Virus record (IMG/VR): IMGVR_UViG_3300042429_001351
Length of the DNA stretch: 64,000 bases
Strand: one strand, 5' to 3'
From: an uncultured virus (IMG/VR IMGVR_UViG_3300042429_001351)
Lineage: Duplodnaviria; Heunggongvirae; Uroviricota; Caudoviricetes
Shown here one piece after another: positions 2 through 46,000 of this stretch (its first letter is position 1; each line of letters begins with the position of its first letter). Under the pieces are notes generated by a model, which was not told the DNA's origin, searched no databases, and worked only from the letters and a program-made list of their open reading frames with translations. Both the position numbers and the translations under genes were made by a program.

Positions 2-3000
2 GTTTGCTTGAGTCCTTACTCTTCCATACTCGTTTCTAAGTTGCTGTAATTCGGATATGTTTCTTTGGGCGAGCGCTGTTATTCGAGCCGTAGCACCAGA
101 AGCAGCATCTCGTCCGTCTTCACGGGCGGAAAATCTCATCTTCTTCAACAACTCTCCCAGGGGGCCAGGTTTTTCTTCTGTTCCCAGGTGAAGCGCGTCC
201 CATCTTCTTATTCTGTTCAAATACTGCGTAGCAGATTCTTTTGACTTATCCCAACCTGGGAGTATTGTCCCATCCCTAAGTGTCTGTTGTTCTCTATTGG
301 GCGGTCGTGTTGCAAATATTTCTCGAACCAGAATCATCTGTCTTGAAAAAGCGGTCCTAAATCTTGAGTACTCTATTTCGATTTTGTCAACAATTGATTT
401 TTGCTTGTCTATCTCTTTGTCGATTGCCTTAGCCCAATCCTTTGGTTCAAGCCCTTTAGCAACAAACTCATCTTTTATTCTCTGAATTCTCTTCTTTGTA
501 AATTCGTCGGCTCGTGATAAGGCAGCAGTATCCGCAACCCTTCTGGCATCATTGTATTTCTGCGTACTGATGTTATTTTCCAAAGCATAACGCTTGAGCG
601 CCAAAATCAAATTTTGAGTATCAATCAAATTTTCATCGAATGCAATCTCGTCTGCAGAAAGAGTTCCAGAATCAAAAAGGTTCCACAACTGCGCCCTTCG
701 TGCCGAAGATGCAGGGGTCGAAGAATTTAGGTCGTCATGTTCCTGCTTGATTGCGGCATCACGTGCTTCCTTTAGTTTCGTGCGAGCTTGAGATGCACTG
801 TAGTCATCCGCAGAAAGATTTACGCTAGGCATACCACCGCTGCCATAAGAACCGCTTCTTGTTATTTCATTTAAATCACCGATTAATTCTCCATTAGCGT
901 CACGTGTAAACCATTGAGGTTCATCCGCAGCAATAACTTCAATCAGTCTGTCTAAGCCAGAAGCAACACTTTGGTCCATTGCTAATGGGTCCGGACTGTT
1001 TATGTCACCTTTGTAAAATGCGTCTTCAAGCTCTTTTGGCGGAACGGCGACATCGACCATTTCATCTAGGTTTTTATATCTATCTACCTGGCTTCCCGGG
1101 TAGTCTTCTGTCCATTCACGTAGAAAGTGACCGTTCGACAACCAGTGCCTATAGAGCACCTGGTCGAGTAGGTTCATTTTTGTTACATCTATTGGGTTGC
1201 CATTGATATCAAGATTGAATGGGTGATTATCGCTTCCGTCGTATGCTGGTGCAATTATGTTTCCCTCATCATCGTAAATTGGCTGGTTCCAAACTTCCGG
1301 TGTGTCAAGAGTTCCGTATTTGTCTTCAAATCTTGGCTGTGATGCCTTGTCCCCGTAGTTCATGAGTTCATTTAGGAATTCTTCAATCTGCCGACTGATT
1401 TCTCCTTCATCGTCTCCCATGACTGAACCACCATCATCGTCTGGTGGCGGTGGTGGCTCTTCACTTCCATCGTCTGGCGCTGGCGGCTCGTCGCTACCAT
1501 CTTCTCCTGCTTCTTCACCTGGTTGACCAGGGTCGATGGCGTCCATGTCGGAAGCGCCATCATCGTCGATGTTGTCTATTCTCCGTGTACGAGATGGATA
1601 CTCTGGACGTAGTACGTCGTTTGAAAGCCAACCGTTCGATTGTCCAATATCTATGAAAAGATTAAGTTTTTCTTGAGCTGCAAGAGCTTCAATCGGGTCT
1701 ACGTTTTCTCCGTCGAGAATTCTGTTGGTAACGTCAAAGAACGGTTGTGCTGATTCTTCAACCCCCTGCGACCATTCGGTGTGGGTATAAGGCATGCCCG
1801 TATTAGGGTTCAGTAGTTCTTCTGGAGTCCTATCCATCCATGCCGGGATATTGTTTAGGAAATCCTCTATCGTCGCTATACCGTTAGCAACATCTTTGTC
1901 AATTTCATTATCAATCATTTGCTCGACAAGTTTGTCGAAGTTTGGGTCACTCGTTGACAATCCATTATCTTGAAGCATGCGTTTTGCAAGCATCGTTCTA
2001 AACTCTAAGTCTTGATACTCGTCAGCTATACCATATGCCACATCTTCGGCAAGTGAAAGTGTTGTCGAGTTAAGTGGCTCGCGCACAGATTGTCTTATGT
2101 CGGAATTTGATGGATTATTTGCATTTATCAATCCAGGGATAATAAATGTATTAAAGAAATTATCAATTTCCTTATCCGACATTGCATCCGGGTCAAGTCT
2201 TGAGATATTTCCGGATGGATTTACGTTTTTGTATTCGTCTAAAAATTCCTTAACTAATGGACGTTTTATGTTTGCTGCTGCTGCCAACTCTCTTGGCGAC
2301 GGCGGAGCTGTGGCTGCCCTGTATCCCTGCATTGAAAGTCCGGCATCGTTCAGTTCTACTGACGTCTTATCGAACAAATCATCAACTTGGTCATCCGAAA
2401 GAATATCCAAACCGCTAATAGCTCTTGCTATGTCGTCTCCAACGAGAGCGGAAGAAAGTGAAGGAAGTTTCGTGTCCCTATCTGGTAGGAGAGCGAAATT
2501 CTTGAGCTGTTGGCGCTTCCACTCTCTTCTCTTCCAATCAGACTCTTCTTGTGGTGTCATGTTCGGACCAGTCGCCATGGCTCCGGTTATCGATGAATCC
2601 CACATTTTTCCGGCATCGTTATCCCTCGAAAGCTCCCTATAGAAACGCGCGTTCGATGCTCGCTCGTTCGTATCCCATCTAGATGAAGAGCCATCAAATG
2701 CGCTTTGGGCAGTTCTCTGTATTTCGTTTAACTGCCTGAATCCGTTTGGCTTATTATTTCGGTCGGCAATATCTCTGACGTATCCACGTTTATTCGCTCT
2801 GTTCGTTTCGCGTATCCCGAGTACGAATTTTGAAGAATCTTTTTCTGGAGACTGACCAGAAGGGAAGGCCCTAAAAAGGTCGGCTTCTAGTTCTCCGTTT
2901 TTATTGTTCTTCTTTGAATCTCCGCTTCGGAAAACCCAATTCAACATTGAGTCCCAATTTTTGATTTTTCCTTCGCGCGCTGCTTCTAGAATCGGTTCTT

Positions 3001-4582
3001 TCGATACACCCATTCTGCTCTCTACAGCACTCGACAACTTGTTGTTATTGTTTTTAAAAGCCTTTTCGTTTTCATCTCTAAAGTCTTGATGATTTCGCAA
3101 TACCGTAGCAATTTCATCGCGGACCACATCGAATTTGTCGGCGAGCTCGTCAATGGAGTAATCGCCATCTTGCCAAGCGCGATAAATTTTATTCTTTTCT
3201 TGTCTATCGAGTTGATTTGAGAAATCATCGTAAGACTCTTTCAGTGCGCGAGCACGCTCTGCTTCCATGCCAAGTTTGCGAGCGGTTTCTTGTAATTCTT
3301 CAGTAGTTGAATCAATTTGCTCCACCTGTTGGACGGCTTGAGGCTTTGGCTTCGCCTCGCTAGCTTTAGGTTTTGGAGTATTAATCGGCTTGCGTTCCGC
3401 AACTCTCTCCGCCTCCCGGCGTGGTGTTGTTGGCTTTGCTCTCTCTATTCGTGCTGGTTTCTTTTCTGCGCTTTGTCCGCGAGACACAACCCTGGGAACG
3501 CGGTCTTCTCTCGGCTCACGGCGTGGGAGATTCACCCTATTTTCGGTAATTCGTTGAGCTAAACGTTCTGTTGGTTTTACGCTTGGTGCACTTGGTTTTT
3601 TGACTGGACCGATTGGATTAATTCCAGGTATCGCTGGGCGTTCGTGAATTGTGCCTTCCTGAACAACCCTGTCAGAGTCGGCGTCTCTTGCATTTTGTTC
3701 GAATGGAACTACTGCAGCTCCAATTCCTCCCATTGTTCTACGCGCGGAACGTCCCCTGTTTTCTACTTCCCCAACTCCGATGCGACCAGCGAGCCCGCCA
3801 CTAAGTCGTCTCCCAACGGCCTTGAAATCTAACTCCTCGTAGAATTCAATATGCTTTTGTCCTCTTGCTGCTCGTTTTCTAGCCTTAGCTGCTGCTCTTG
3901 TATTCGAAACCACTCGCTTGCCAAGCTTGCTTCCTTCTATTTTTTTACGATTGGTAGCAGCACGTTGCCCCACGGTTAAATTTTCCCAAGCTTTTGCTGG
4001 CAAATATCTTCTTGTGACAGTTCCACGTTTTGCTGGCTTGCCATCTATTGTGCGCCATTTTTGCTTGGTCCACCTACCCAAAGAGCGTTGAGTCTTACTC
4101 TTGCTTCCCCTGTATCCACCACCAGCTTTTCTGTATGCATTGGCGAGAAGCTGAGCTTTTCTTGCAGACCACTGGCCCGGTGCTCCACCTTTAGAGCCAG
4201 ACATTATCCGTTCTTTTAGACGGTCGCGTAATTCTGGCTTTGTATAGTTGGCGCTTTTTTCTTTGTATTTTCGTTTCGAAGGAGAGCCAATTATTTGCCT
4301 TATCTCGCGCTCTAATTGAGTTCGACGATATTTACGACCAGAAAAACCTATTCCGGAATATTTTCTGTAGTCCGATTCGTTTGTGCATGGCATCCATGAA
4401 ACACCGCCGGTTCGGTTACTGTATCGACGAATTCCGATGCATCCAAGTTGTCTTGCTCTAACGCGAGCAGATTCTGGGTCTGAATAAGTATCTGGGTCTG
4501 AAGGACGAACGATACGCGCTCCGCCCAGAACATCCTTGATTTCAGAATTTTCGTCTTCGTTAATCTGGTCCATATAGTCCAT
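2..4582 (-). CDS. Giant putative internal-head protein (>1527 aa, runs off the left edge; missing from the ORF track); N-terminal DUF5872-like domain, DxDxD motif, HTH-like segments, ITGAM motif
   Basis: Manual translation from ATG at 4582 gives MDYMDQINEDENSEIKDVLGG...YTKPELRDRLKERIMSGSKGGAPGQWSARKAQLLANAYRKAGGGY...ARDADSDRVVQEGTIHERP...SSITGAMATG. Same frame open at 4582, 2576-2596 and 2-300; not every codon rechecked. Confidence 0.85.
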   Translation of the reverse strand, partial: MDYMDQINEDENSEIKDVLGGARIVRPSDPDTYSDPESARVRARQLGCIGIRRYSNRTGGVSWMPCTNESDYRKYSGIGFSGRKYRRTQLEREIRQIIGSPSKRKYKEKSANYTKPELRDRLKERIMSGSKGGAPGQWSARKAQLLANAYRKAGGGYRGSKSKTQRSLGRWTKQKWRTIDGKPAKRGTVTRRYLPAKAWENLTVGQRAATNRKKIEGSKLGKRVVSNTRAAAKARKRAARGQKHIEFYEELDFKAVGRRLSGGLAGRIGVGEVENRGRSARRTMGGIGAAVVPFEQNARDADSDRVVQEGTIHERPAIPGINPIGPVKKPSAPSVKPTERLAQRITENRVNLPRREPREDRVPRVVSRGQSAEKKPARIERAKPTTPRREAERVAERKPINTPKPKASEAKPKPQAVQQVEQIDSTTEELQETARKLGMEAERARALKESYDDFSNQLDRQEKNKIYRAWQDGDYSIDELADKFDVVRDEIATVLRNHQDFRDENEKAFKNNNNKLSSAVESRMGVSKEPILEAAREGKIKNWDSMLNWVFRSGDSKKNNKNGELEADLFRAFPSGQSPEKDSSKFVLGIRETNRANKRGYVRDIADRNNKPNGFRQLNEIQRTAQSAFDGSSSRWDTNERASNARFYRELSRDNDAGKMWDSSITGAMATGPNMTPQEESDWKRREWKRQQLKNFALLPDRDTKLPSLSSALVGDDIARAISGLDILSDDQVDDLFDKTSVELNDAGLSMQGYRAATAPPSPRELAAAANIKRPLVKEFLDEYKNVNPSGNISRLDPDAMSDKEIDNFFNTFIIPGLINANNPSNSDIRQSVREPLNSTTLSLAEDVAYGIADEYQDLEFRTMLAKRMLQDNGLSTSDPNFDKLVEQMIDNEIDKDVANGIATIEDFLNNIPAWMDRTPEELLNPNTGMPYTHTEWSQGVEESAQPFFDVTNRILDGENVDPIEALAAQEKLNLFIDIGQSNGWLSNDVLRPEYPSRTRRIDNIDDDGASDMDAIDPGQPGEEAGEDGSDEPPAPDDGSEEPPPPPDDDGGSVMGDDEGEISRQIEEFLNELMNYGDKASQPRFEDKYGTLDTPEVWNQPIYDDEGNIIAPAYDGSDNHPFNLDINGNPIDVTKMNLLDQVLYRHWLSNGHFLREWTEDYPGSQVDRYKNLDEMVDVAVPPKELEDAFYKGDINSPDPLAMDQSVASGLDRLIEVIAADEPQWFTRDANGELIGDLNEITRSGSYGSGGMPSVNLSADDYSASQARTKLKEARDAAIKQEHDDLNSSTPASSARRAQLWNLFDSGTLSADEIAFDENLIDTQNLILALKRYALENNISTQKYNDARRVADTAALSRADEFTKKRIQRIKDEFVAKGLEPKDWAKAIDKEIDKQKSIVDKIEIEYSRFRTAFSRQMILVREIFATRPPNREQQTLRDGTILPGWDKSKESATQYLNRIRRWDALHLGTEEKPGPLGELLKKMRFSAREDGRDAASGATARITALAQRNISELQQLRNEYGRVRTQAN

Positions 4583-4693: not shown

Positions 4694-7003
4694 TTATTCA
4701 TTGTTTAAAAGTTTTTCAAGTTCTTCCTGGTGCAGCTGTTTTATTGCTTCAATATCAATATTTATGAATTGCGACCTAGCGAAGTCTGCTAAGTCGAATT
4801 TCTCCGGATTACGTCCTTCGTCAATGTCAATCTGATAAGCAATTTGGAGCGTATCCCGGATGTCCCTGGCTTGAGAACTGGTGACCGAATCGATGGTGTT
4901 TTTTTCAAGGAATTTGGGGTTTTGAATTTTCTTTTTATTAAGGAATGATTCTCTTTCATTTTTCAAAAGTTTTGCAACCATCGCACTGGTTAATTGCTCT
5001 GAATCAAGCAGGGTGGCATCTCGTAGTTCTTCTGTTAAATGTTTTAGTGTTGTTGCTCGAGATATCTTTTCATCCACCTTTGAGTCTACTGTTTCCAGAA
5101 TTTTATCTACTACGTATTCAGGTATTTTTGAATAATCGTCGCTTTCTCGAACCACCGACGTAGATTTCGGGATTGGACTAAGTCCAAAAGATGACCTTAG
5201 GTCGTCTTCTATTTGTTTTATTCTCCTGTCAAACTCCGAGATTAATTTGCCTTCATCGTTCTTAAAGGCGAGACGAACACCAACCTCCTGCCCTTTACTG
5301 TTTTTTGCTGTGACATAAGGGTTATTCAACCATGAGTTATATCTCTCCCAATACTGGGATGGATTTATTTCTTTGGAAAATGTACCGAGAAAGTCGCGCA
5401 CTTGTTGGGCTGCTGCAGTTTGGGGGTTTGCTGGGGTTTCGGAATGTGTAAAAACAACACCGAATGGGTCGTATAGAGCCCCATGGTCACTTCCTGATTT
5501 TCCCCACAGGAGCCCCAATTGTTCTATTTGTTTAGAAACTTTTTTTAATTGCGGAGCATACCCAGTCCCATATCTAGCATACTCTATCCCCCCAAATTTT
5601 GCGAATCCAATTTCAAAATTTCGTTTGCTATGTGCGTTTATGTACTTCAATCTGGTTGAGTCATCTTTCCACCAGAAAGTTAAACCACTAGATGGGTCAC
5701 GTTTTCCTTGCGTAAAATATTTGAAATTGTCAATATCTTTTTGCGCCCATTTTTTAATAAATGGTAATTCTTTATGTGTGTCGCGTTGAGGTCCACCGCC
5801 AACGGCTTCCCTAAATGCTTTTGGACTTATTCCAAGTCCGGCCATCGCACCGGTGATTCCACCATTTTTCAGGTGTGACGAACGGGTGTGATAGTTATCT
5901 GGATTGTTCCAAAAAACATCATTTCCTATTCTGTATCCTGCATCGCGAAGTGATTGAGCCATTTCTCTCGTTGAATTAAACTCGTCATTTAGTCCATGCA
6001 GCTGCATTGAGCGAGCGATTTTGAATAGTCGTGCTCCGTTTATGTTGTTTGTTGGGTCTTGACCGCCATCGAAATCCGGGTTAGCAATCCAGTCATGTTT
6101 TTTTATATCCCAGGCCATCGACTGTAAGTAGAGCCCAGCTGCCGTCCTTAGTGATTCCAGGTATTCTGGATTGTTCTTTAAATCCTCTAATGGCTTTCCG
6201 CTGATGTCGTACCTAAAACCATATCCGGCGCTTCCTCTGTCTATTGGGAATGTCCACCAATCAAAGTGCTGCTTGTGAAACTCTGCCCAATTTCTACTGT
6301 CGGCCCATGTTTTGAATTTCCTAGTTTGATTTGCCTGTTCCGATACAAGGCTATCAATTCCGCCAAATGGGGTGTTGTTTGTTTTCGCAACGTACTGTTT
6401 TGGTTTAGGTTTTTTGAACCTATCCATCATCCCCATTTCGCCAGTTATTGAGTCACCTGGCGTTGGGTCTGGCATCTCTCTGGAGGTGCCATCAAAAATT
6501 AGGCCATTACTATTTGCATCATTGCGTGTTAATGGGTTTTGGTCGCCGGTTATTTTTGCATTATTAAGAATTCGTCTTCCGATTCTGGGAAGAGCTTTTC
6601 CGGTTATGGCATCCCTATTTATCCCGCCGTTTGTTATTGGAGGAATAATCCCACCACCAAAAGCCGTAACCGTACTCCCAGAAGGAGTCGGAGGGGGATT
6701 TAATATATCAGTATCAAGTCTTTCTCCAGAAAACGCTGCTCGACGTCGTTTTTTCTTTTTTACTCGTTTTGGAATAACTTCTTCAGTGTTTAGCTCCTTA
6801 CCAGAACCGCCACCCGTCGAACCGCTGTATGAATAGTGCGCACTGACTAATCCGACGCCATCGACAGATACTGGAGCATCAATCAATCGCTCTTTTAACT
6901 TCTCCCAGCCAGAAACGTTCTCTCCACGCAGCTTTCGTTTTTTTCGATTCTTGCGTTTTGGTGAAGATATCTCCGGCGTAATTTGTTTACTTTTATTATC
7001 CAT
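4694..7003 (-). CDS. 769 aa multidomain putative virion/effector protein (OGFr_N/DUF1810-like and HicA-like segments)
   Basis: Long ORF with a basic N-terminus; KQHFDWWTFP motif; KQIEQLGLLWGKSGSDHGALYDPFGVVFTHSETP segment; ITGEM and ITGAM motifs at segment boundaries. Confidence 0.7.
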   Translation of the reverse strand: MDNKSKQITPEISSPKRKNRKKRKLRGENVSGWEKLKERLIDAPVSVDGVGLVSAHYSYSGSTGGGSGKELNTEEVIPKRVKKKKRRRAAFSGERLDTDILNPPPTPSGSTVTAFGGGIIPPITNGGINRDAITGKALPRIGRRILNNAKITGDQNPLTRNDANSNGLIFDGTSREMPDPTPGDSITGEMGMMDRFKKPKPKQYVAKTNNTPFGGIDSLVSEQANQTRKFKTWADSRNWAEFHKQHFDWWTFPIDRGSAGYGFRYDISGKPLEDLKNNPEYLESLRTAAGLYLQSMAWDIKKHDWIANPDFDGGQDPTNNINGARLFKIARSMQLHGLNDEFNSTREMAQSLRDAGYRIGNDVFWNNPDNYHTRSSHLKNGGITGAMAGLGISPKAFREAVGGGPQRDTHKELPFIKKWAQKDIDNFKYFTQGKRDPSSGLTFWWKDDSTRLKYINAHSKRNFEIGFAKFGGIEYARYGTGYAPQLKKVSKQIEQLGLLWGKSGSDHGALYDPFGVVFTHSETPANPQTAAAQQVRDFLGTFSKEINPSQYWERYNSWLNNPYVTAKNSKGQEVGVRLAFKNDEGKLISEFDRRIKQIEDDLRSSFGLSPIPKSTSVVRESDDYSKIPEYVVDKILETVDSKVDEKISRATTLKHLTEELRDATLLDSEQLTSAMVAKLLKNERESFLNKKKIQNPKFLEKNTIDSVTSSQARDIRDTLQIAYQIDIDEGRNPEKFDLADFARSQFINIDIEAIKQLHQEELEKLLNNE

Positions 7004-7397: not shown

Positions 7398-10300
7398 CTA
7401 AAACCAATTACTTGGACTCAATTGAGCCGTTTTCCCATTTGGGTATTGTATCGCCCCTAGAAGGGGGGCGTAGTCGGTGTAGTCTTTTATTGGTTTATTC
7501 TCCATAATCATTGAAGAGCGATTAAGCATAATGATTCTTCCTATTGAACCATTTAATGCGTGTTTCCATATTTGGGATGGTGTTATCGAGGAATCACTGA
7601 TTCCTTCTGCGGCAAAACCATCGTACCCCATCATGGTTGCAATGTTTTCTCCTCGCATAAACAATTGAGAGCGTATAGCTCTAATTATTTTTTTATTGTT
7701 GTCTGTAGCGCTTTGTAGACCAGCTGATTCATCTTCAAGCATTTTCACAAGGTCGCTAACGTGTGTCATTCTCTGTTGCAGCCATGCATTCCATAGGTCT
7801 TTTGTTTCCTCTATTTCCCGCAACTCATCAACCGACATTGCTGCAGCTTCCGAGATTCCTGGGAAAAGTGCTTCTCTCATATTTCTATCTAATCTCCCGT
7901 CTCTATTCATGCCCTCAATGGTTACGGCGCCCCAGCTAGCATCTGGTCTTTGACCTGGGGCAACAGGCGTACCTTTGGCGGTAAGTCTATCTATATGTGC
8001 GTCGAGCTCGACTATTTGCTGACTACTCAATGTCTTGCTGTTTGGATTTAGTTTCAAACTGTCTACTGGAATGCCGTATATGCTTGATTGTCCATGGGAT
8101 GAGTTCGTTCCGTTTGGGGCATTCGGTGCACCAAGTGCGTTATATAGCGACCAAAGAGCTTCATAGCTTTCTCCGCTGTTTCCGCCTCCCTCTCCGCCAA
8201 AGATGCTTCCAAACTGCTTTCTGTTTACCAATCTTGACTCTTGCGAGAGGACCGCAACCATAGACCCACCCTGGTGACCGTGGTACGACTTCCATGCACT
8301 CGGGCTTTGGGACCAATACTCTCCCCTGCCGCTAGCGTTTCCGCCCTGCCCAGGTATAAACCGGTCTCCAGTTAAGGCATCGTTCACCATTTGCAACTGC
8401 ACTGAAGCCGGTGCTCGTTGCTTGCCACCGACGCCTCTTGAAATAACGACATATCTTGGTTGACCGTCGGTCTCGACTTCCTTCAACATCTCGATAATTT
8501 CTTCTCTACTGGCGAGTACGGGGAAGCTATTAAATCCGTTGAATTGCCAAACAGCACCGAGGTGTGCGGTACCGGCATCCGGATAAACAATTCCAGCTAT
8601 CCGTGAACCTTGAGGTCCGACTATTGGCTGGTTTGGATTTGCCAAACCAGCGTCATAAATTTCTCCCAATACATCCAACATATCAATTTGCTCGTCGCTT
8701 ATTGTTGCTGGCGCACCATGGGTAATAAATTCAAACAGCGTTTGCGCTCGGTGGTCGTCTCTTATTGTTATTATTTCACTTGCAGTTCTTAGTGCCTGTG
8801 GTGGCGTTGGCGAATTCCACGGGTCGAGAATTGATGGTTGATTGTCATACAATCCTTCTGCTCTTGGTAAACCCTGCGCTGCACGCGCAGCAACCCGTCG
8901 CGTTCTTTCGTTGGAACGTTTGGCTCTGTCTTCCATGCCAATTCTTATTGCATTTTCTATTGCAGCAAGAGCTGGAGGATTATTAACTATATGTTTTTCC
9001 AGTAGGTGGGCAGCCTGCTCAGCAATTGCTCCTTGGAAAATATAAATATCCTGGAGACCTTTATTGCGTCTCTTGTTCGTTGAAAGCTCTCTTCTCCATC
9101 CGCTCAAAGCATTGTCGCGAGCATCAACTGCCGTGGCGTGCACAGCAGAAATATGTCGTTGTGCGTCAAGCCAGGCCGAATTTGCTTTTTGTCTTAAAGT
9201 GTCTATTTCTTGCTGTGTGCTGCCGGGAATTGGATTGTTGGCTGCATGCTCTAACTGAAGCGCGCGATTGATTGGAATAGTCATTCCAGCGGTTGTTGTT
9301 CTCGAGCGATAGCTTCCATCAGGAAGATAGAACTCACCGATTGGTAAATTAGGGTCAAGACCGAGTCTTTCTACATTGAAGCTACCAGCATCTAAATATG
9401 CATTATTCGGATACGCTGCTCCATCGGCAATAAGTTTGGTGGTTGTAGGGCTCGCGTTTGTTATGGAACGCGAGAGCCAATTTGCTCCATCGAGAAGTTC
9501 GTTTGAAGTAGCCGCGTTTTGGAGTAACTGCACAGCTATTGTTGCGTCTAAATCTTTGAGTAATGGAAATACTGGCTGAGTCACGTCATTAGTAACGCGT
9601 GCACCTCTTGTGTCTATGTAAGACAATTCGCTCAGGGGTGCTTCCGTCTGGGCACTAATTTTTTTATTTCCACCTTTTTTGTGTTCTTCAAAACGCTTCC
9701 TCACTGCGTTCCTGAATGAACTAATTACACCTATGTAGTGATTTTTGGCAGCGGCAGTTTTGGGTTTTACTGTTATATCTAGTGACGGTGTGTTTGGGTC
9801 GACGCCTGGCGCTACTCGTAGTACCGGTATTCCTTTTGTTAACGCGTTATTGGTGTCCACCGCTATATGTGGGAATATATTCCCAACCCCTGCCCCACCG
9901 TCGAGTACGAGTGGTTTTGGGGTGTAAATGGAATGCTGGTCAATCGGAAGATTTGATAAATCTTCAACAAACTCCCCGGTTGATGTGTCAATGTAAAGTC
10001 CTGACTTGGTATCAAAAACGATTCCCAACGCTGAGTTGCCCACTCCTGGGGTAATTGTCTGTCCGGTTCCAGGGGCTCGCGGTATAGGTGTCGTCGTTGG
10101 TATTACTGGTGCACTTGGCGTAACGCTTGGAGCGATTGGGGGAGTTGGGACGGGAGGAGTAGAAGGAGTCGATGTTGGGGTAGGAGGGGCCGACGGGGTA
10201 GGAGAAACTGGAACTGGTGACGTAGCACCACCACCCGGAGTCTGTGGGGTGTTCCCTCTATTTGGACCATACGGTGTGTACGGTCTGCGTTTAACCGGGT

Positions 10301-13300
10301 CAACTCCTGTTCCCGTTATCTTTGCATTGTCCATCACTCTTTTGCGCAAAGATGGTTTTAGGTCGTTGATTAGGTTGTGGTCTTTTGTTGATTCAAAATC
10401 AGTTAATACCAAAAAGTTATGGAGATTGGTTTCTTCTATTCCGGCTCGCCTTGCGTCTGTTTTCGAAAGATTATCTATCCAACTAAGCAATTCGTCTTCG
10501 GTTAGTGGGTTTGTGTCGCCAACTGCTTTGCCTAATTTCTTCCTAAAACTATCTTCTCTGTAGTCCAGTTCTTTCTGCATTTCTGAAGAAAGAAGTGATT
10601 TGTCAAGAGCACTCAGTGTCGATGCGTCTGGTAGTTCTGGTCCTGTCGTGGTTTTGCTGAAACGCAATCCACTTCTAGTACTGCTGTTTGTAACAGAACG
10701 AACTCTCGCTCTTGTTGATGGTACTGCCTGCTGTTGCTGCTGGTTCGCTGGTCTTCTAAACCTACCTAAAACGCGTTGTATGAAAGTAGGTTTGGCATTT
10801 TGTGCTGGAGTTTGACTTTTTTGAATTTCATTTTTTATGTAATCGCTAGCAATGTATTTAACTTCATCGTTGCCATTTGCATCCGTGATTACGACAGCAG
10901 AAACAATGTGGTGCCCTTCGTCATCGAGAAAATGTGCCGTAGAGGAATTTGAATCTTCAATGTAGATTGGAGGCTGATACGGGTAGTTATTGTTTGGCTT
11001 AGGATTTCTCGTGCTGTATCTTATGGTGTTCCCTTTTGAATCCACCTGTTCAATCGTAAGACCAAAATTGGATACGGCACCCTGTGTCGGAGAAGGGCCA
11101 TTCGGGTCATTGAAAGCTTTTGACCACTCATCAATTATTTCTTGTAATTCTTTTTGATTAGCGTCATCAAAGGAATCTGGTAATAGAGGTTTTCTATTTG
11201 GGTCTGTCAAAAGATTGTTTAGCTCAAGTACGCCACCAAAGTTTGATTCATCTTTAGTCCATACCGAGGCAGGTACTCCCTGTGGTGGCATGAGGTCCTG
11301 GAGAAGGATGTCAATTCTTGGGTCTCCATTGTAGATATGGCGAGCGGAAAGGTTCATTGACGGTGAGACTCTTTGTCCACTTAGTCGTGGGTCGAGAGGA
11401 TAATTTTGAGGGGGCGATGCATAGTTGACTTCGTCTTGTGGATTTACTGGCTCTTGTCTAATTCTGCTAGCCATACGTCGCATGAACTTGGCTGCTCGTT
11501 CTCTCCGTGCGTCTGTGGCTCTTGGTCTTCTGCCCTGTAGTTCTCTGATTGCGCGTTCTGTGTCAGTTGGTGGAGGACCAAATATCCCAGTCGACTGACC
11601 GATTCTCTGGACGATTCCTGGAGTATTCGGTTTACTGCCACGATTTTTGCGTTTGTTGTTATTTTTTGGAGCCCTTACTTGTCCGCCAGCAATGCCAGCA
11701 CTTTGGCTCGTGTTGTTAATTTTTGAGATGCGTCTATTTTTTCTTCTATCTGGATTGACTAAATCATCTGCTGTTTGCCGCATTCGCCGAGCTATTGCTG
11801 CGCGCCTATTCGAACCTCGTCTGCCAGTTCCGGTTGAAAGCAGTTCATTAACTGTTTCCTCCCCAATTATTAAGGCGTCGTTTCTATCAAAGGGGTCTAA
11901 TCTTCTACCTATATCGGGATTCGGCTGCCTGCTTCCATCAGCCGCGAATTCAAATAAAAACTCTTTTGCTATGGATGAATTGTAATCAATTGCATACATC
12001 TCATTCGGGGTTATATAGGCAGGAATATTATTGTCAAAGTATCTATTAGCACTATCGGTGAGTTGTTGCGTAATTTGAGTCGACCTATTGCCAAGCCATT
12101 TCTGCGTATCTATCATTCCCTGGAAATCAAAAAATTCACCAGTTGCGTCATTGTAATAAATACCGTTATCAGCAATATCTAAAGGTATTGTTCCACCATT
12201 TGTTCTCAGCTCATCAGATATTAACTGGTCTGGTCTCGTATATTTTCTGTTAAAAGAATTTGCTGGCGACAGGAAATCTTCTGTTTCCTTTCGAGTGAGA
12301 ACTTTTGCCCCACTGTAGTTTGCTAGAGCATCACGATATGCATCTATAGTATCTATTTGTTTTTGATTGCCGTAAAGATTACTCGTCACTTTAGCTGTAT
12401 GGAGTATGTCTAGTCGTTCTTTTTGAGTTATGTAATCACCGATTACATTCGTTAGGTCGTATCCTGTTTTGCTTACATCTAATGGGTCACGCACCCCGAT
12501 AAGTTTGAGTTCGTTTACTACTTCGTCCGAATCAATCATCTCGTCAAGGTTTATCAACAAGCCATCTCCCAACAGAATGGAGCCATTGTTGGAAAGTTTC
12601 TTAGGAAGTATTCCGCCGGTGTGCCTGTATTCCAGTGGGATTTTCTTATCTCTTTTAAATTTATTGTCTTTGGGGTTTGGTGTAGAAGTTGGAATTCTTC
12701 TGGCTGCTCTGCGGGAAGTCGCCGTATTGAAAGCGTCATTTCTTATGTCGTTTCCGACACGCGCTATAACAGTTCCAGCGGCGATGCGAGCCCTGTCTCG
12801 ACGGGTCATGTCGGGATTGAGAGAACCATATACATCTCTTGCGGTTGGATTTGCGGCGCGGAGTTTTTCTTTTGCGGTGCGCTTATTTATTTTTTCAACA
12901 CGTCTCGCAGCACGACGCCCAAATTTTTCAACTCGTGCAATTCTTCTTTTTTCTGCCCCTGCTTCGAGTCTTTGTCCTGCTCTCAAAAGGGCTGGCTTGT
13001 CAATATTGCTTAGGTCGTCAGATGGTTTGGCAATGTCACGCAATGAAGCGCCAATCATCCCACGACCGATTCTTCTAACCATGCCGAAGGTACAACCAGT
13101 GCCGAGTCGGTTGGTGTACTGACCACCGAACGGAGTGTTGTCTGGACAGCGCCAGCCACCGCCGCCAGGCATATTTGTATCCCAAACAGCACGGACACCC
13201 TTCACCTGGAGTGTGAGGCTTGAATTTTTGCTGTCATGGATGAATGCTCTGGTTTTATAGTTGACTGCAATCTGCTTGTATGCAACATCAATAGACGCCA

Positions 13301-13724
13301 ATCCAATATCCGTAATTGGCCAATTAAGGATGTTTTCCTCTACCGAGTAATCATCCTCGATATTGAAATCATCACCAGTGGAACTATTTGCTGGAAAATA
13401 TGGTGGCGCGCTCTTGGTTTCGATGATTCGCATCAGAGCTTTTTTCGAAATTTCATTTTTCAGTTCAGCGAAGGTGTTCTGTGAAAATTTTTCCTCTATT
13501 GAGTCAATGTCAAGACTGCCAACATCTGACATTTCCCCAATCGTCAATGTTAAATCAAGTGATTCACGAATTGCTTCAATCGTCATTTTTTCATTATTGG
13601 CCCAGTTTGCCCAAACCTCTCCCTGGCCAAGTGCGCCAAATGCTATCGGCTCGCTGCTGGACAATACCAAAACGGCAAAAGTTTGCTTTGTTAGTTTGTC
13701 TTCAATTAATGCAACTTGTCTCAT
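7398..13724 (-). CDS. 2108 aa giant putative virion protein with C-terminal ADP-ribosyltransferase-like domain
   Basis: Long ORF; RCP-CX17C motif; Pro/Thr linker; C-terminal ISRGV...GRGEYWS...GYDGF...IIMLNRSS pattern resembles phage ART-like toxin domains. Confidence 0.65.
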   Translation of the reverse strand: MRQVALIEDKLTKQTFAVLVLSSSEPIAFGALGQGEVWANWANNEKMTIEAIRESLDLTLTIGEMSDVGSLDIDSIEEKFSQNTFAELKNEISKKALMRIIETKSAPPYFPANSSTGDDFNIEDDYSVEENILNWPITDIGLASIDVAYKQIAVNYKTRAFIHDSKNSSLTLQVKGVRAVWDTNMPGGGGWRCPDNTPFGGQYTNRLGTGCTFGMVRRIGRGMIGASLRDIAKPSDDLSNIDKPALLRAGQRLEAGAEKRRIARVEKFGRRAARRVEKINKRTAKEKLRAANPTARDVYGSLNPDMTRRDRARIAAGTVIARVGNDIRNDAFNTATSRRAARRIPTSTPNPKDNKFKRDKKIPLEYRHTGGILPKKLSNNGSILLGDGLLINLDEMIDSDEVVNELKLIGVRDPLDVSKTGYDLTNVIGDYITQKERLDILHTAKVTSNLYGNQKQIDTIDAYRDALANYSGAKVLTRKETEDFLSPANSFNRKYTRPDQLISDELRTNGGTIPLDIADNGIYYNDATGEFFDFQGMIDTQKWLGNRSTQITQQLTDSANRYFDNNIPAYITPNEMYAIDYNSSIAKEFLFEFAADGSRQPNPDIGRRLDPFDRNDALIIGEETVNELLSTGTGRRGSNRRAAIARRMRQTADDLVNPDRRKNRRISKINNTSQSAGIAGGQVRAPKNNNKRKNRGSKPNTPGIVQRIGQSTGIFGPPPTDTERAIRELQGRRPRATDARRERAAKFMRRMASRIRQEPVNPQDEVNYASPPQNYPLDPRLSGQRVSPSMNLSARHIYNGDPRIDILLQDLMPPQGVPASVWTKDESNFGGVLELNNLLTDPNRKPLLPDSFDDANQKELQEIIDEWSKAFNDPNGPSPTQGAVSNFGLTIEQVDSKGNTIRYSTRNPKPNNNYPYQPPIYIEDSNSSTAHFLDDEGHHIVSAVVITDANGNDEVKYIASDYIKNEIQKSQTPAQNAKPTFIQRVLGRFRRPANQQQQQAVPSTRARVRSVTNSSTRSGLRFSKTTTGPELPDASTLSALDKSLLSSEMQKELDYREDSFRKKLGKAVGDTNPLTEDELLSWIDNLSKTDARRAGIEETNLHNFLVLTDFESTKDHNLINDLKPSLRKRVMDNAKITGTGVDPVKRRPYTPYGPNRGNTPQTPGGGATSPVPVSPTPSAPPTPTSTPSTPPVPTPPIAPSVTPSAPVIPTTTPIPRAPGTGQTITPGVGNSALGIVFDTKSGLYIDTSTGEFVEDLSNLPIDQHSIYTPKPLVLDGGAGVGNIFPHIAVDTNNALTKGIPVLRVAPGVDPNTPSLDITVKPKTAAAKNHYIGVISSFRNAVRKRFEEHKKGGNKKISAQTEAPLSELSYIDTRGARVTNDVTQPVFPLLKDLDATIAVQLLQNAATSNELLDGANWLSRSITNASPTTTKLIADGAAYPNNAYLDAGSFNVERLGLDPNLPIGEFYLPDGSYRSRTTTAGMTIPINRALQLEHAANNPIPGSTQQEIDTLRQKANSAWLDAQRHISAVHATAVDARDNALSGWRRELSTNKRRNKGLQDIYIFQGAIAEQAAHLLEKHIVNNPPALAAIENAIRIGMEDRAKRSNERTRRVAARAAQGLPRAEGLYDNQPSILDPWNSPTPPQALRTASEIITIRDDHRAQTLFEFITHGAPATISDEQIDMLDVLGEIYDAGLANPNQPIVGPQGSRIAGIVYPDAGTAHLGAVWQFNGFNSFPVLASREEIIEMLKEVETDGQPRYVVISRGVGGKQRAPASVQLQMVNDALTGDRFIPGQGGNASGRGEYWSQSPSAWKSYHGHQGGSMVAVLSQESRLVNRKQFGSIFGGEGGGNSGESYEALWSLYNALGAPNAPNGTNSSHGQSSIYGIPVDSLKLNPNSKTLSSQQIVELDAHIDRLTAKGTPVAPGQRPDASWGAVTIEGMNRDGRLDRNMREALFPGISEAAAMSVDELREIEETKDLWNAWLQQRMTHVSDLVKMLEDESAGLQSATDNNKKIIRAIRSQLFMRGENIATMMGYDGFAAEGISDSSITPSQIWKHALNGSIGRIIMLNRSSMIMENKPIKDYTDYAPLLGAIQYPNGKTAQLSPSNWF

Positions 13725-16869: not shown

Positions 16870-19800
16870 CTATTTATCTTTCATCGTTGAGAGAATCGCA
16901 TAGAGCTTGACCATTGGAGGTATTTCATCAAGACTAACAGATTCCTGTTTTGCAGATTTAATTGACGAGCCAAGTCTCCCAAATATCGGTTTTACAATCT
17001 TGGAGGCAACATCTCTGATTTTTTCTGTCTCCTCAAAGTCGTACAGCCCACCATCAGCACCAGCTCTAAATTGTGGAACGATATCAAGGTCTTTATTCTG
17101 TCCGAAAAGCCACCATGCGCTAAATGCTTCAGCAAATTTTTCAGCGTTATTCGTAGCGCCGTACTTCGTTACCGATGATAGCTGACCAAAATCCTTTTCT
17201 AGCGATGTACTCCAACTAGAAGCATTATTTGACTTTCTTGATGCTAATGTATCGAGCACATGACCCATTTCGTGCACCATTACACCGTAAGCAAGACGTT
17301 TCGCCATCTCTTCTTTTTTTGCTTTGATTTTTAATTCATTTTCTGGCGTACGAGTTATTTTGTTGTTGTTTTCAAATTGCAAGAAGATGTCATGAACGCC
17401 ATGGTATTTTTTCCCAATTTGTGCTTTTAGATTTGATAATGCCTGTCCGCGCAATTTTGTATCCATTACAAATGTATCTGCTATTTCATCAGACGCATTG
17501 GAAATTCGCCCAACCGGTATTTCCATTTCAATTATTCCAGCATCATCGTCCATGGAGACAAAACCAAGGAGCCCTTCTTCATCGTTTGTGGTTAAGTCTC
17601 TTTTGACTCTAAAACGCATATCAGAAGCAGCTCTTCCGCCAAATAAATCTTCTGCATCAAAATTTGACAAAATGTCATCTAGGGCTTGAAGCGATGCAAA
17701 ATGCGCCGTTTTGTAGGAATCGCCCTCATCGAATATGTCGTCAATTTCCATTTCTAAATCGTATTTTTTTTTAAAATATTTGGTCTGCTCTGCGGCTGTT
17801 CTGCCAAATTTTGCTTCATGCTCCTTTGTAGATGCGACCTTAACCACACCAGACTTGTCGCGGCCATAAGGGAGTGTCTTGGGTCCTTTTTCAACTACCT
17901 CATCAAGCGTTCTACCTACCGACATTTCTCCCGTTAGCGAGCTCTCAACCACGGTATTGGGTTTTTTTTTAGTGCTCTGCGAAAGACTCATCGCGCCAGT
18001 TATTCCTGAGGCGATGTTGTCTTTATCCCCACCACCCTTTGCTTCACGCATGTCACTGATTATGTCTTCCATCTGCTTTTCAATTTTGTTTCTTATTGCT
18101 TCTTTTGCAGTGGTTTTTTTAGATGCTTTTTTATCGAAGGCTTTAGGGTCGAAAACGTTAAGTCCATATTTGTTAGTTATTGAAAGCTTTATGCCTTTTT
18201 TGTCCATTGACTTTCGCATGGCTTCTGCGGCTTCTAGTCTGAGGTATTTATCAACGTCCTGCTTCAGGTCGAACTCGGCTGCTCCAAAGCGGTTCATGCC
18301 TTTTTGAATTTTGTCAGGTATCACAAAGTCCCTTGGTGAGGAGGAAAGCATGTCTCTAATGATTTTTCGTTCTTCTTCGGTTGGATTGATTCTGTCCATT
18401 GCGGCATCGGAGATAATCTTTTCCTTAAGACCATTTAGGAAAGATTCGCTTTCCTTGATGTATGCGTCTTTGCCCATTGCCGAATTTGTTGCTGGAGAAT
18501 CAGGGTGACCGTCAATGAAGTTTTTTGGAATCGAATCGAATGGTATTTTTATTTCGTCAATATCGTCGGAGTTAAATCCCCCAGCAATAAACGCCTCACG
18601 TGGCTCCCACGAGCGACCTGGGCTTGTCGCGTACTTTTCTTTTCTATATGCGTCGTGGTTATTTTTAAAGCTATTGTATAGGTGCTCAATTATGTTTTCT
18701 GCACGGTTGTCAGTCTTGAAAGCAGCATCAACATGAGCCCTAGCAATCACTTCATTGTCTGAGCTGTTCATGCCGACTGGCTCAATATGGTTATTGAACA
18801 ACTCGCCGTTTCCGTACGCTGTTCTGTCAGCAACACCAGGGTTTAGAATAACTTCAGCGTTTCCAAAATTCCAGTCATTACCCCTAGTTCGCTTGGAGTG
18901 GGGAAAATCTACAAGGTTGGGGGAGTATCTTTCCGGATTCTCTTTACCACTGTTTTTGAGGAATTTATTAATGTCGCTCTGTTCTCTTTGAAGTTCATCC
19001 ATGTGTAGAACAAAACCCGATGCCGGACGTAACTCAACTGGGGTGTCTGGGTGTATGCCAATATCGGCTTCGTATTTTGCAAGTATCTTGTCGAGACCTA
19101 CAATCTCGTTTCTTTGATGGCTGTTCTTGAACCCGTTTTCAATAAGGTCTTTCAAGAATCTTCCAGGAACGTGCGTGCGAGGCTGTTTATCTAAACCCTC
19201 GTGGAAGTCAAGAATTGAAAACTCCAGTTCCTTCTTTAGCTCTTCGATTGGTGTTTCGTTTAGGTATCTGTGGAAATCTGGGTTAAGGCCATTGAGAGCA
19301 TTCTTAACATCAAATATGTTCTTCTTCCAGTCGTCGTCATTTGGGCCGTCTGGTGGAGGGGAGCCAGGTGGGGCAGCGGCAGCAGCCTGTGGTCCCTCTG
19401 AATTCGGAATGAAGTCAGTCTTAATCACGTCCTTCAACGCAGTAAGAACATTAATTCGTTCTTTGTTTCTGGCTTCCTTTGTCTCACTGATTAGCGTTGG
19501 TCCGAGCATCGTGTCGGCAGGGTTCAAATCTTTTATATAGCGCACACTTGTGTCTCCGCCAAAGTTTCCGCCAGGCCCATTGATTGAGCGCTTGATTTCT
19601 GCGGTCTTCCGATTTGATTTTCTAGTTGAAGATATTTTCATCGATGTTCGCATCGCGCCAGTTACACCGCTGCTACTTGATGATTGATAAAGAGGAGCGG
19701 ATAGAACCTTTTCTGGACTTGGGTCTATGCCTTCTTTTTTCAGCTTGACCGCTCTTGCCATAAGCGCATGTGCTGCTAGGTTGTAGTTTTCGGGTTGACG

Positions 19801-25829: not shown

Positions 25830-26203
25830 GAATTTTGCTCCTTGTATTGCATCGAACTTGACAGACAGCCTTTTGGGTTGCTGCAACCACCACACGGATT
25901 CATGCGTTTTTCGCCTGAAACTATGCAGTGATATTTATATGAAATTTTTTGTTGCTGTACAGGTTTAGCATAACCCATAACAGGGGTTCTTTGGCTGACG
26001 TTACCTACTTTAGGACGTGTGAAGCGTGTCGATTTACCACTTGCGAGATGAGTCTCTTCGGACTTGATTTGAGTCTCGATGACATCCAGTTTCTTATTGA
26101 GTTCTCCCACCAACTCAAAGTTATTTTGGACAATCGCTGAGTCGCGCTCAAATTCAATATTTTTCACAGCGTAATTGAGTAATTCCGTACGTTTCTCGTT
26201 CAT
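25826..26203 (-). CDS. Hypothetical protein, 125 aa, C-terminal Cys cluster
   Basis: ORF within the head operon; YHCIVSGEKRMNPCGGCSNPKGC. Confidence 0.75.
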   Translation of the reverse strand: MNEKRTELLNYAVKNIEFERDSAIVQNNFELVGELNKKLDVIETQIKSEETHLASGKSTRFTRPKVGNVSQRTPVMGYAKPVQQQKISYKYHCIVSGEKRMNPCGGCSNPKGCLSSSMQYKEQNS

Positions 26204-42253: not shown

Positions 42254-42300
42254 GTATTGACATCCGCCACTAAGGGCATAGCCCTGATAGTGTTGCGGCC

Positions 42301-42986: not shown

Positions 42987-43021
42987 TGTGTCGCAGATAT
43001 TTATCTAAGGCATAAGAGACT

Positions 43022-46000
43022 ATGGCAGCTGACGAACGCGCAACGATAACTATTGACGTAGACGTCAAAAATCTGAATAGGCTTCAGCAGGTTACCGCTG
43101 CGCTTGAAGCAATGGGCGTCGCATCCGAAGTAAACGCCGCTAAGTTCGGCAATCTTACGGGAGCAATGACTGGTCACTCAAGGGCATCAAATAAAGCATC
43201 AAAAGATTCACAAAGACTATACGAGAAAATAAGCATACTCGACAAAGTAAGCATGCAATTTACTAAACAAGCGCGAAAGTTGATGCTTGGAGTAATGGCT
43301 ATGAGCATTGAATTCGGCGTATCTGCTCTCGCCTTGGCCTCAGTCAACGCACTGTTCGTTATAGGAAAAGTTCTTGTAAAGAGCTATCAACTTGCAATGC
43401 AGGGACTGGCCGCAGGTCTCGCATCGGTTGGCGTTGCCGCTATTGCCGCCGCCGCTGCGTTTAGCGAAATGCAAACAGCTCAATTCGCATTTAGATACTC
43501 GAGCGATTCAACGACTAATTCAATGGATAAATCCTCGCTCGCGCTCAGAGGTTTATACAAGGACACTCAGTTAAACATCTACGGCATGAAAGCTCTTTCT
43601 GCAGCATTTGCTGGAGTGAGCAAGAATTCTACGTTTACTGCTGGTTCGCAAAAGATGCTCCAGGGTTTTTCAGATTTTATTGCATCAAGTGGTGACCCAA
43701 CGAAAGCGATGCAGGCAGCAGCTAATGCTATTGGTTTAATCCAGAAAAAACAAACTGGAACGTCAAAGCAGATGTCCACAGAAGCAATTAATGCAATCAA
43801 ACAAATAAACCCAGCTTTGGCTGATTTGGCCAAAAAGGGTGGTGGTGGATTTGGCAATAAAGATAAATTTATTGAGGCTTTGCTTGATGGTTCACTTGCA
43901 GAAAAATCTGGTGTTGCTGGTGCTGCATCCAATGTTGCCGGAACACTTTTCGCCCAATTCAAAAGCTACCTAACAAGTTCTTTTGTTGAATTAGCAGATG
44001 TTGGTAAGCGTGTGCTTGAACCAGTCAAGAAGGCAATGCATGCAATATTTACTAGCTTGACCAAGAATTTTAGACGGATTAGTTCTGACCTTGTAGCTTT
44101 TGGTCAAGGACCATTCCTCAAGTCACTCGTTACTGCTGTTGACAAGCTCGGCGAGTTTGCAGTCATGCTTATCAGGAAGGTCCTTCCCACAACTGAGGGT
44201 TTCTCTAAAAGGATAAGCGGAATCTTTTATCAGTTACAAAGATATTTTTATCAGGTTACAACATCGTTGGACAAAATGCGTGACGGTGGGACCATTGTTA
44301 TCAAAACTTTTGGTGAACCAATACTCGAAATATTTAAACAGATTGGTAAAAGTGCTCGAAACATCGGGGAGCTAGCGGTGAAGCACAAGGATAGCTTCCT
44401 TAAATTCGGAGAAGCCCTAAAAAATATTGTTGTTGGATTTTTTGATTTATCAAAAACTTTTAAAGAAGCATTTACTGGAGCCTTGCCGGTTATCACAACC
44501 GTCCTTAACGCTATTGCAAAAATAGTTTCGGCGGTGAACAAAGTTTTTGGAATGCTAACGGGTCCCAACAACCCAATAGGTTCTGCTATAGGAATATTCG
44601 CAATGGGCGGAATGGCGCTTAAAGGTACCAGAGCTGCACAAAGGAAAAGGAGATATTCGGGAAGTGGTGGTGGTGGTATTCCTGGATACAACGAAGTCAG
44701 CGAAATGGACTGGGCTGCTAGAGGACTGCCAATGCCCAGCAATGCAAGCGGAGCAGCAACCGCAGCAGGTGGTGGAACATCCCTAAGCGGTGCAATGGCC
44801 GTAGCCGCAAGTGCTGCATCAGAAGCTCTAACAACAGGTCTTGCCCCTGGAATAGGTTCTGTTACTGGTGCTTCCAATGCAGCTGCAACAGCATTAAACA
44901 AACTCGCAACCACGGCAAGCGGAGCATCAATGAAGGGCGGCATGAAGGGTGGGTCGGTCGATGACTATGGATACATCGAAAAGATGCCTACGCGTTTGCC
45001 TGGACAATCACAAGCCGACTACATGCGAGATAGAACAAGATACATAATGAATAATAGGGGCGACGACTTACGTGACCTTGAATCTCGCGGTCCCCTATAC
45101 GAACCATTGATTGCACCAGATGGACGAGTTGGTAGTGGAGGAGGGAGAACTCCACAAATAAACCGCGGTCAAAGATATGACTCATTTGGATTACCAATTG
45201 CTGGGGGCGCAGCGACAACCAGAGAGCAATACAAATCTCAACGGTTTGATATAAGCAAAAAATCAGATGCTTTTGCACGCTTACTGGGTTATAGCGACAC
45301 TACCGCTGGACGCGCAGCTGACAGCCTGTGGAATTCGCCCGAATTTTTGAACTCTGCAGCTCAAGACAGTATGACCAGAAGTCAAAAATTGATGTCATTT
45401 TTACGTCCTAAGGGCAAGAGGGCATCTGACCTATATGCGGAAACTAAAGGTGGTCTGAAATCATTTTTGCCAAACACGGGCGCAACGATGAAAGGTCAGG
45501 CTCTACAAGTAAAAGACACCTTAAAGAATTCCCCACAAGCGCTTAAGTCATTTTGGAGAGGTTCTGGTGGCGGGATAACTGGAGCAATGTCAGGTGGCGG
45601 CACAACTGGTGCATCTGCGGCCGCTGGTGGAGGTCGAGTGATTAATGCTGGTCCAGGAAGTATCAGGGACATTGGACTGAAGGGGAAGCTTGGATACTTG
45701 GGAGGTAGAACCTTATTTGGTCAAGGGTATAAAGGCGGAACCTTCGGTACAGAACTGAAGAATTTGGTCACCGGCAAGAACATGAGAGACCGTTATCAAA
45801 TGTCTCTAGCTAATCAGCAAGCTGTTTTTGCGAAGAATAATCCAGAAGCCGCTGCAGCAGGCGTAAAGATGCAGGGCAGCAGACTGAAGGCAATGAAGGC
45901 TGCAACAAAAGCAAATCTCAGCGGCCTTGGTGGTATGGGTGCAATGGCTGCTGGTTACGCGGCTAGCAGATTTGGCAATGAAGAAAATATGGGCGCTCTG

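Follow-up and report, generated by a model that had tools for sequence, protein, structure and literature searches.

A short peptide motif, [ILV]-T-G-[AES]-M, recurs in five virion-module proteins, the protease chain included, of an uncultured Caudoviricetes virus (IMG/VR record IMGVR_UViG_3300042429_001351). This motif, here called the tag, is probably a proteolytic junction code, whichever phage protease reads it, the S78 enzyme or a zincin. That it is the cleavage code of the S78 prohead protease in particular has, in our estimate, about an even chance of being right. The window, that is, the whole stretch of 64,000 nucleotides that was analysed, comprises bases 13207-77206 of a 108,378-bp IMG/VR virus contig with an estimated completeness of 73%, and the gene content of the contig is that of a myovirus. 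A first-pass annotation of the window had interpreted the motif as a processing site, an interpretation that is partly supported by the comparisons reported here.

The twelve occurrences listed in the first-pass annotation all translate to the motif in the expected open reading frame (ORF) on the gene strand, and its two near-matches were likewise found in place. Its statement that the oxygenase genes lack the motif proved wrong, as a thirteenth exact match, LTGSM, is present at 61241..61255 (- strand) in a 244-aa 2-oxoglutarate (2OG) oxygenase. This match lies inside the folded PF13640 domain and is not preceded by Gly or Ser. It is most likely a chance match outside the tag system. The 13 matches in the window occur in 20,351 aa (44 ORFs), for which the expectation from composition is 0.11 and the mean of 2000 shuffles is 0.10, with a maximum of 2. 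On the whole contig there are 19 matches (mean of 300 shuffles 0.19, maximum 2), and all except one are in ORFs of at least 750 aa. When the window is translated in six frames the matches are confined to three frames and are the same 13 as in the ORFs; the other three frames contain none. Gly or Ser occupies the position before the motif in 13 of the 19 sites, in agreement with the earlier description. The strong excess over shuffled proteomes is seen here and also, when each genome is searched with its own variant of the motif, in two complete relatives.

The tagged head genes are encoded on the - strand. The site assigned to the first ORF (ITGAM, aa 665, 2576..2590) is correct, but that ORF is incomplete in the window: the N-terminal 1527 aa of the protein are encoded at 2..4582 (-; ORF and Pfam evidence), and the full chain, a polyvalent cargo protein of 3687 aa (p3687), has seven sites on the contig, at aa 665, 2031, 2230, 2500, 2677, 2846 and 3122, only the first of which is within the window. 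A 769-aa protein (p769; 4694..7003, -) for which motif scan and family searches gave two tags and no family match has ITGAM at aa 383 (5843..5857) and ITGEM at aa 186 (6434..6448). The polyvalent protein p2470 (16870..24282, -) combines a zincin module, an RNase_T exonuclease and a C-terminal ATLF-like zincin. Its six tags are LTGAM at aa 721 (22108..22122), ITGAM at aa 775 (21946..21960), VTGSM at aa 1073, the C-terminal edge of the exonuclease fold (21052..21066), VTGAM at aa 1540 (19651..19665), ITGAM at aa 2094 (17989..18003) and LTGEM at aa 2116 (17923..17937), and it has one near-tag, IVGAM, at aa 253 on the N-terminal border of the zincin module (23512..23526). The 830-aa protease protein (p830; 26212..28704, -) contains an S78 domain, DUF6321 and three more domains. 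It has two tags: VTGAM at aa 647, after a Pro-rich disordered linker (26752..26766), and ISGRM at aa 346, a possible site where a disordered linker gives way to the next domain (27655..27669). On the + strand, the 1671-aa tape measure protein (TMP; 43022..48037), encoded downstream of the sheath, tube and chaperone genes, has LTGAM at aa 45 (43154..43168), the near-tag LSGAM at aa 588 (44783..44797), and ITGAM at aa 852 in a Gly/Ser-rich stretch (45575..45589).

The proposal that the tags sit at domain boundaries is borne out, since none of the Pfam domains of p2470 and p3687 is interrupted by a tag. The RNase_T domain of p2470 lies between tags 775 and 1073, and the ATLF-like zincin lies beyond tag 2116. 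The NUDIX (aa 1811-1939), helix-turn-helix (HTH)/sigma70_r4 (2183-2226) and DnaJ (2515-2577) domains of p3687 occupy separate segments, and the zeta-toxin-like kinase (Zeta toxin, 3236-3381) and HTH_23 (3466-3494) share the last one. In p3687 and in the complete relative G2 alike, the DnaJ domain starts 15 aa past a tag. Alignment ends give a similar picture: 53% of the 74 internal BLAST alignment ends in the giant proteins of the window are no more than 15 aa from a tag versus 8% of random positions, and on the side of the relatives the values are 39% of 64 ends versus 7.5%.

Structure predictions place the tags in flexible regions. An AlphaFold model of p2470 aa 700-1110, based on an alignment of 11 lineages (mean predicted local distance difference test score, pLDDT, 76.3), has residues 787-1073 folded with pLDDT above 86; this is the exonuclease module between tags 775 and 1073 (21064..21924, -; AlphaFold and Pfam). 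Tags 721, 775 and 1073 fall within or border on segments that score below 50, the region around 721 and the linker that holds 775 among them. The model of p830 is weak (mean pLDDT 57.8); in it tag 647 lies within the Pro-rich segment 585-657, which has pLDDT below 50, and ISGRM 346 ends the disordered segment 321-347, where the next domain starts. The overlay puts five tags (p2470 721, 775 and 1073; p830 647 and 346) in disordered linkers at domain edges, as had been supposed.

The tags mark the borders of mobile modules. The exonuclease module, at aa 775-1073 here, is found at about 1228-1531 in L005 and about 2253-2556 in L013, and it sits elsewhere in the polyprotein also in L036, L052 and L018. 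A G-x-M tag precedes it in nine of 11 aligned lineages (L052 and L018 are without one at that column), and a tag also follows it except in L013 and L036, where the module ends the chain. Module 1073-1539 of p2470 is duplicated in L013 and has LTGAM on both sides in L010, and the order of the p3687 modules differs in L114.

At least 525 relatives of the protease protein are present in IMG/VR, and 78 loci (416,380 aa) were examined. Conservation of the motif holds in part only. The exact pattern is rare in relatives (30 matches in 12 of the 78 loci), and is for that reason replaced here by a G-x-M core with lineage dialects, in which form the motif is kept. The dialects found in giant ORFs beside the protease are ISGRM, I[ST]G[KR]M, [VI]SGKM, LSG[SA]M, [VL]VG[RA]M, L[TS]GAM and P[VI]GxM. 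Counted by their own dialects, the complete genomes G1 and G2 have 19 and 23 tags, almost only in giant ORFs, versus 1.2 and 2.7 in shuffled proteomes. In a pool of 190 sites, in which G and M are set by the search pattern and some conserved non-junction matches are included (FFTNPSGPMK of DUF6321), the residue two before G is hydrophobic or Pro, the one directly before G is Ser or Thr (or Val or Ile), the x position is variable, and M is mostly followed by Ser, Gly or Ala. Similarity is much higher among the tags of a single genome than between genomes. Across 18 genomes or loci with 500 label permutations, within-genome identity at the hydrophobic position is 0.59 (permuted mean 0.30, maximum 0.37), at the Ser/Thr position 0.49 versus 0.29, and at the x position 0.28 versus 0.16. 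One junction, WN-x-[ST]G-x-M at p2470 721, is kept in six of 11 aligned rows, by a count made by eye. In L046 and L062-L079, which form a more distant clade, the protease is present and giant ORFs and the tag are both absent. The closest cultured relatives are Brevibacterium phage Cantare and Gordonia phages, with major capsid proteins (MCPs) 47-50% identical and protease domains about 41% identical. Cantare, the one cultured genome examined, has an ordinary 418-aa protease-scaffold protein and lacks giant ORFs with tags; its residue at the MCP position discussed below is Ala.

Selection acts on the peptide rather than on a DNA repeat, as had been proposed, because synonymous codons differ freely across the sites. 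Gly is encoded by GGA at seven of the 19 sites, by GGC at six, GGT at four and GGG at two, and the codons for Ala, Ser, Glu and Ile vary too. Thr is ACT in 13 of 18 motif sites versus 97 of 199 other Thr-Gly dipeptides; this excess is not a DNA motif, since it follows a genome-wide Thr-Gly codon-pair habit. At the seven sites with GGA, the sequence GGAG ends 2 nt ahead of ATG. An origin at the DNA level or as a ribosome-binding site was considered, and is ruled out by the variable codons and the general Thr-Gly codon habit.

The proposed reader is encoded in the same module as the tagged cargo. The S78 (HK97 gp4-type) protease domain occupies aa 28-171 of p830 (28192..28623, -), next to the portal gene, and was identified with Pfam (PF04586 Peptidase_S78, E = 5.5e-11, 43.3 bits versus a cut-off of 21) and PHROG (phrog_80, 8e-28). 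The blocks GHNW, EWSIGYK and LHGANQ are invariant in an alignment of 24 homologues, as are S130 and H162 (24 of 24), and H66 is kept in all 20 rows that cover its column. These three residues, H66, S130 and H162, are the candidate catalytic residues of the domain. The best-conserved single tag of all is in the chain of the protease itself, at aa 647, where G is present in 20 and M in 19 of the 24 homologues. At site 346, G-R-M is present in 28 of 70 loci. Met at 346 was tried as a marker of tagged lineages and rejected; it is missing in all tag-free loci, but also in the tagged G1, L016, L010, L025, L042 and L026. In-frame fusions of the protease with 2391-3999 aa of cargo occur in L007, L008, L016, L020/G1 and L045, and their first tag is at the point equivalent to 647. 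The S78 protease heads a 3190-aa chain in L193 (G001:C1:85088-94657), a complete 174-kb relative, and is followed there by Mor-like HTH and sigma70 region 4 modules, each bounded by P-V-G-x-M tags.

All tagged cargo genes are located between the protease gene and the MCP gene, and the giant genes therefore fill the slot usual for scaffold genes. The last of them, p3687, extends past the start of the window, and the gene for the HK97-fold MCP is directly next. Residues 13-110 of p3687 (window 4270-4544, -) are homologous to the C-terminal part of a 220-250-aa protein that in most relatives is encoded just before the MCP gene. This N-terminal part of p3687 has the look of a module, scaffold-like or for capsid targeting, that has been joined to cargo, and its likeness to the product of the gene before MCP would suit a capsid-targeting role.

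In its generalised form, a hydrophobic residue, Ser or Thr, G-x-M and a small residue, the tag would be a proteolytic processing signal. The capsid cargo would be made as three giant polyproteins (3687, 2470 and 769 aa) and the S78 protease as an 830-aa multi-domain precursor, which, presumably inside the procapsid, would use the tags as sites at which to cut the cargo and its own chain. About 18 modules would be freed in this way (exonuclease, zincins, NUDIX, DnaJ, zeta-toxin-like kinase, HTH/sigma-like domains and unassigned ones) and would then be ejected with the DNA. A scissile bond after Met is favoured, by analogy with T4 and phiKZ and because conservation alternates, with the hydrophobic residue, G and M at i, i+2 and i+4. 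Such alternation would fit a substrate bound in extended form, its P5, P3 and P1 residues turned towards the enzyme, and it parallels the motifs [S/A/G]-x-E and [L/I]-x-E.

Several observations weigh against cutting by the S78 protease. The MCP is the canonical substrate of S78 enzymes, and it has no canonical tag. It has the HK97 fold and an N-terminal extension of about 150 aa; its sole candidate site is K-S-I-G-x-M at aa 102-107, and the position equivalent to the HK97 cleavage site is at about aa 153, some 45 residues further on, where there is no tag. The TMP is tagged at two positions which are found again in several lineages, and a tail protein should be out of reach of a procapsid protease. 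Lineages of different dialect, and the tag-free clade too, have protease domains that are about 80% identical, so the dialects need not mirror a change in the enzyme. A zincin with Met at P1' would explain the invariant Met equally well, given the S1' specificity of such enzymes, and the cutting itself is predicted from sequence. Gene fission at tags was also looked for, and a tag was found within 25 aa in one of 88 projected gene starts; the test is poorly suited and uninformative, because most of the 88 cases are N-terminal length differences. A predicted complex of protease aa 1-185 with linker aa 630-668 gave scores of 0.00 and 0.00, which is no verdict either way.

The candidate site in the MCP and the sites in the TMP were compared among relatives. 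Of 59 related loci, 40 have Met at the MCP position, where Ala is found in the tag-free clade and in Cantare. Among loci with an upstream ORF of at least 800 aa, tags are present upstream in seven of eight with the MCP Met and in none of seven with Ala or Val. This association is suggestive only, as it comes from few independent lineages. Aligned with the TMP site at aa 45, G2 has RLAGRM and G4 has QLSGSM; G1, G3 and G5 lack a site there. The site at aa 852 has GVTGAM (G3), GVIGSM (G5) and GISGKM (G2) aligned or nearby. LSGAM at aa 588 is not conserved among the five aligned TMPs. A strict match of TMP tags to the dialect of the cargo failed: three of six TMPs have their own cargo dialect, G1 and G5 have none, and G3 has the dialect of the window. 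The claim is therefore limited to G-x-M sites at two aligned TMP places in four of six lineages.

A second possible reader is a zincin metallopeptidase carried in the cargo itself, which would act in the capsid or in the host after ejection and would cut x|M with Met at P1'. Two HExxH modules are present in p2470: HEFGH at aa 476 (22843..22857, -) is the zinc-binding motif of a conserved zincin module (aa 254-720), and HEMGH at aa 2337 (17260..17274, -) belongs to the C-terminal ATLF-like zincin (PF07737, aa 2281-2395; Pfam E = 1.2e-6). Module 254-720 is itself flanked by IVGAM 253 and LTGAM 721, and BLAST finds it in 19 loci, nearly all of them tagged. HEF[GF]H is found near aa 400 in the lineage with LSGSM, HEFGH is found in a G1 protein of 1759 aa, and the tag-free L062-L079 have no HExxH in ORFs of at least 500 aa near the protease. 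The same role, action after injection included, is predicted for the zincins of polyvalent proteins in the accessible part of PMC5512222, and action after ejection would account for the tagged TMP. On the other side, the loci with fused protease L007, L008, L016 and L045 are tagged and yet, in the partial sequences at hand, have no HExxH in ORFs of at least 500 aa. The zincin-motif protein of G1 is untagged, which counts for S78 over zincin, the tag conserved best is in the S78 protease's own chain, and L046 has a HEAAH protein and no tags. The presence of zincins may also just follow the presence of large cargo. Overall, a zincin as the reader appears unlikely, though it is to be taken seriously.

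In a further version, the tag marks every protein that travels through the tail (cargo polyproteins, protease-linked modules and TMP) and is read only in the host, by a co-ejected zincin or protease with which the dialect co-evolves. Three or four long threads would be injected and then cut into about 20 effectors in the cell. We regard this version as improbable.

It is also conceivable, and to our minds decidedly doubtful, that the tag is not cut at all and is a linear docking or modification motif in flexible linkers. It could then, for example, bind the capsid interior, the portal or the tail channel, or be the target of radical-SAM, oxygenase or glycosyltransferase enzymes. Such a motif in head cargo and TMP could label everything that threads the tail, and the contig does have a radical SAM/SPASM enzyme, a PF11397 GlcNAc transferase and at least seven 2OG oxygenases; the homogeneity of tags within a genome suits any co-evolving reader, and the case for cutting is itself built from sequence comparison. 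Docking, however, gives no reason for a motif at every module border, nor for its loss after the last module of a chain, and the fusion of protease and cargo at a tag fits poorly with an uncut chain. DnaJ, zeta-kinase, NUDIX and exonuclease would also be unlikely to work as one 3687-aa thread.

Cutting by a host protease, or a mere linker spread by module duplication and recombination with no reader at all, is very unlikely: modules are indeed shuffled and duplicated along with their flanks, and the title of Zweig and Cummings 1973 (as cited in the accessible part of 10.1101/2022.09.20.507954) reports selective host involvement in T5 tail protein cleavage, but G and M are invariant while the surrounding linkers diverge freely, the same junctions are tagged across lineages about 40% identical with changed flanks, and tags occur in non-homologous proteins (protease, TMP and cargo).

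Processing by the S78 protease would resemble that in phages T4, phiKZ and SPN3US. According to the accessible part of PMC5694885, T4 gp21, phiKZ gp175 and SPN3US gp245 cut many head and ejection proteins, and their own C-termini, at a short motif ending in Glu ([L/I]-x-E, [S/A/G]-x-E or A-x-E), and the S80 family is among these enzymes. The likeness consists in a head-module protease of the assemblin-like kind, one short motif and several sites per substrate, with products that are ejected in the known phages (PMC5694885, same part). The differences are that the Pfam family here is S78 and the motif hydrophobic-[S/T]-G-x-M, with Met where theirs have Glu; that the sites here join unrelated modules in chains of 769-3687 aa, with up to seven per chain, whereas theirs remove N-terminal propeptides; and that here the TMP is tagged too and the cutting is predicted. 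The system would work like T4 and phiKZ processing, yet its family and its Met place it outside S80 and S77, the latter being the family of the T4 gp21-type enzyme.

The giant proteins also resemble polyvalent proteins, which are described in the accessible part of Iyer et al. 2017 (PMC5512222) as giant proteins with conflict-type enzymes, zincins and a link to MuF, predicted to be delivered together with DNA and released by embedded peptidases. The same features are found here, namely RNase_T and the ATLF zincin in p2470; NUDIX, HTH/sigma r4, DnaJ and Zeta toxin in p3687; zincin domains; and the MuF link, though on the portal. In that source, as far as accessible, the assemblin-like peptidase is C-terminal, whereas the protease is N-terminal here and in G1, and no cleavage-site motif is named, whereas here a junction tag is mapped with its lineage dialects. 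HK97 gp4/gp5 shares the Pfam family PF04586, and the capsid protein here has the HK97 fold. What the HK97 protease is known to cut is the capsid delta domain rather than cargo polyproteins, and the equivalent of its site in the MCP is without a tag here. The TMPs of T5 (pb2) and lambda (gpH) are processed proteolytically in tail morphogenesis, with no enzyme named in the accessible part of the source (10.1101/2022.09.20.507954); the TMP here is without HExxH and shares its tag with head cargo. RNA-virus polyproteins, adenain and the poxvirus sites are alike in having one protease code and many products, and are analogies without homology.

The first-pass annotation had known of no description of the motif for a phage. 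No publication was found, in mostly open literature, for this tag or for a junction code linked to S78, and to that extent the statement stands; phage processing directed by a motif is, however, already known. Prohead processing of this kind (PMC5694885) and predicted processing of polyvalent proteins (PMC5512222) are on record in the accessible parts of these sources, and what was not found in print is this particular motif with an S78-type protease as its reader or at its side. Should the tag prove to be a cleavage code, it would provide a site grammar for the predicted processing of polyvalent proteins that can be read from sequence alone, and giant ORFs of uncultured phages could be parsed into functional units, here about 18 products from three genes. 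Motif-directed maturation would then extend to the far commoner HK97-type S78 family, with Met instead of Glu as the key residue, and tag and protease would be a compact pair for making several proteins from one bacterial reading frame. The TMP tags raise the possibility of one protease common to head and tail proteins.

The remaining genes of the window are arranged by strand. The + strand encodes terminase, a recombination module, neck, sheath, tube, chaperone, the TMP and baseplate. The head module on the - strand consists of a portal-MuF fusion, p830, a 520-aa acidic protein and then the very large genes. Portal and MuF form one untagged 750-aa chain (PF04860 + PF04233; 28804..31056, -), so that MuF (PF04233, E = 7e-10) is joined to the portal and not to cargo. 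The 520-aa protein (24333..25895, -) is encoded directly after the protease, between it and the cargo genes, and has neither a canonical tag nor a family match above threshold. Its N-terminal half is hyper-acidic and Met-rich, CxxC motifs (KVCGKCGAM) are conserved, and the C-terminal half is weakly PepSY-like; it is a possible candidate for a scaffold. A 2108-aa head-module protein (7398..13724, -), untagged and without a family match, was compared with its homologues. The one in G1 (1469 aa) has no x-x-G-x-M at all and the one in G2 has one tag. The 2108-aa protein is probably left unprocessed, and it may have a structural or ejection role in the uncut state.

A cluster at 57271-63761 encodes a radical SAM/SPASM enzyme, a PF11397 GlcNAc transferase and five P4H-like 2OG oxygenases. 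Elsewhere on the contig are two further 2OG oxygenases, an AurF-like oxygenase and a second glycosyltransferase; these modification-type genes outside the window are at L080:241-1125, L080:2366-3475, L081:473-1378 and L082:8976-10067. PF11397 is the family of the Skp1 hydroxyproline-GlcNAc transferase. Taken with the Pro-rich linker in p830 (aa 585-646), the cluster raises the idea that virion proteins may undergo proline hydroxylation and glycosylation. The same contig also encodes a 1376-aa tail-fibre-like protein (L081:14367-18497, -) that starts with Mtd_N, the N-terminal domain of the major tropism determinant (PF18454).

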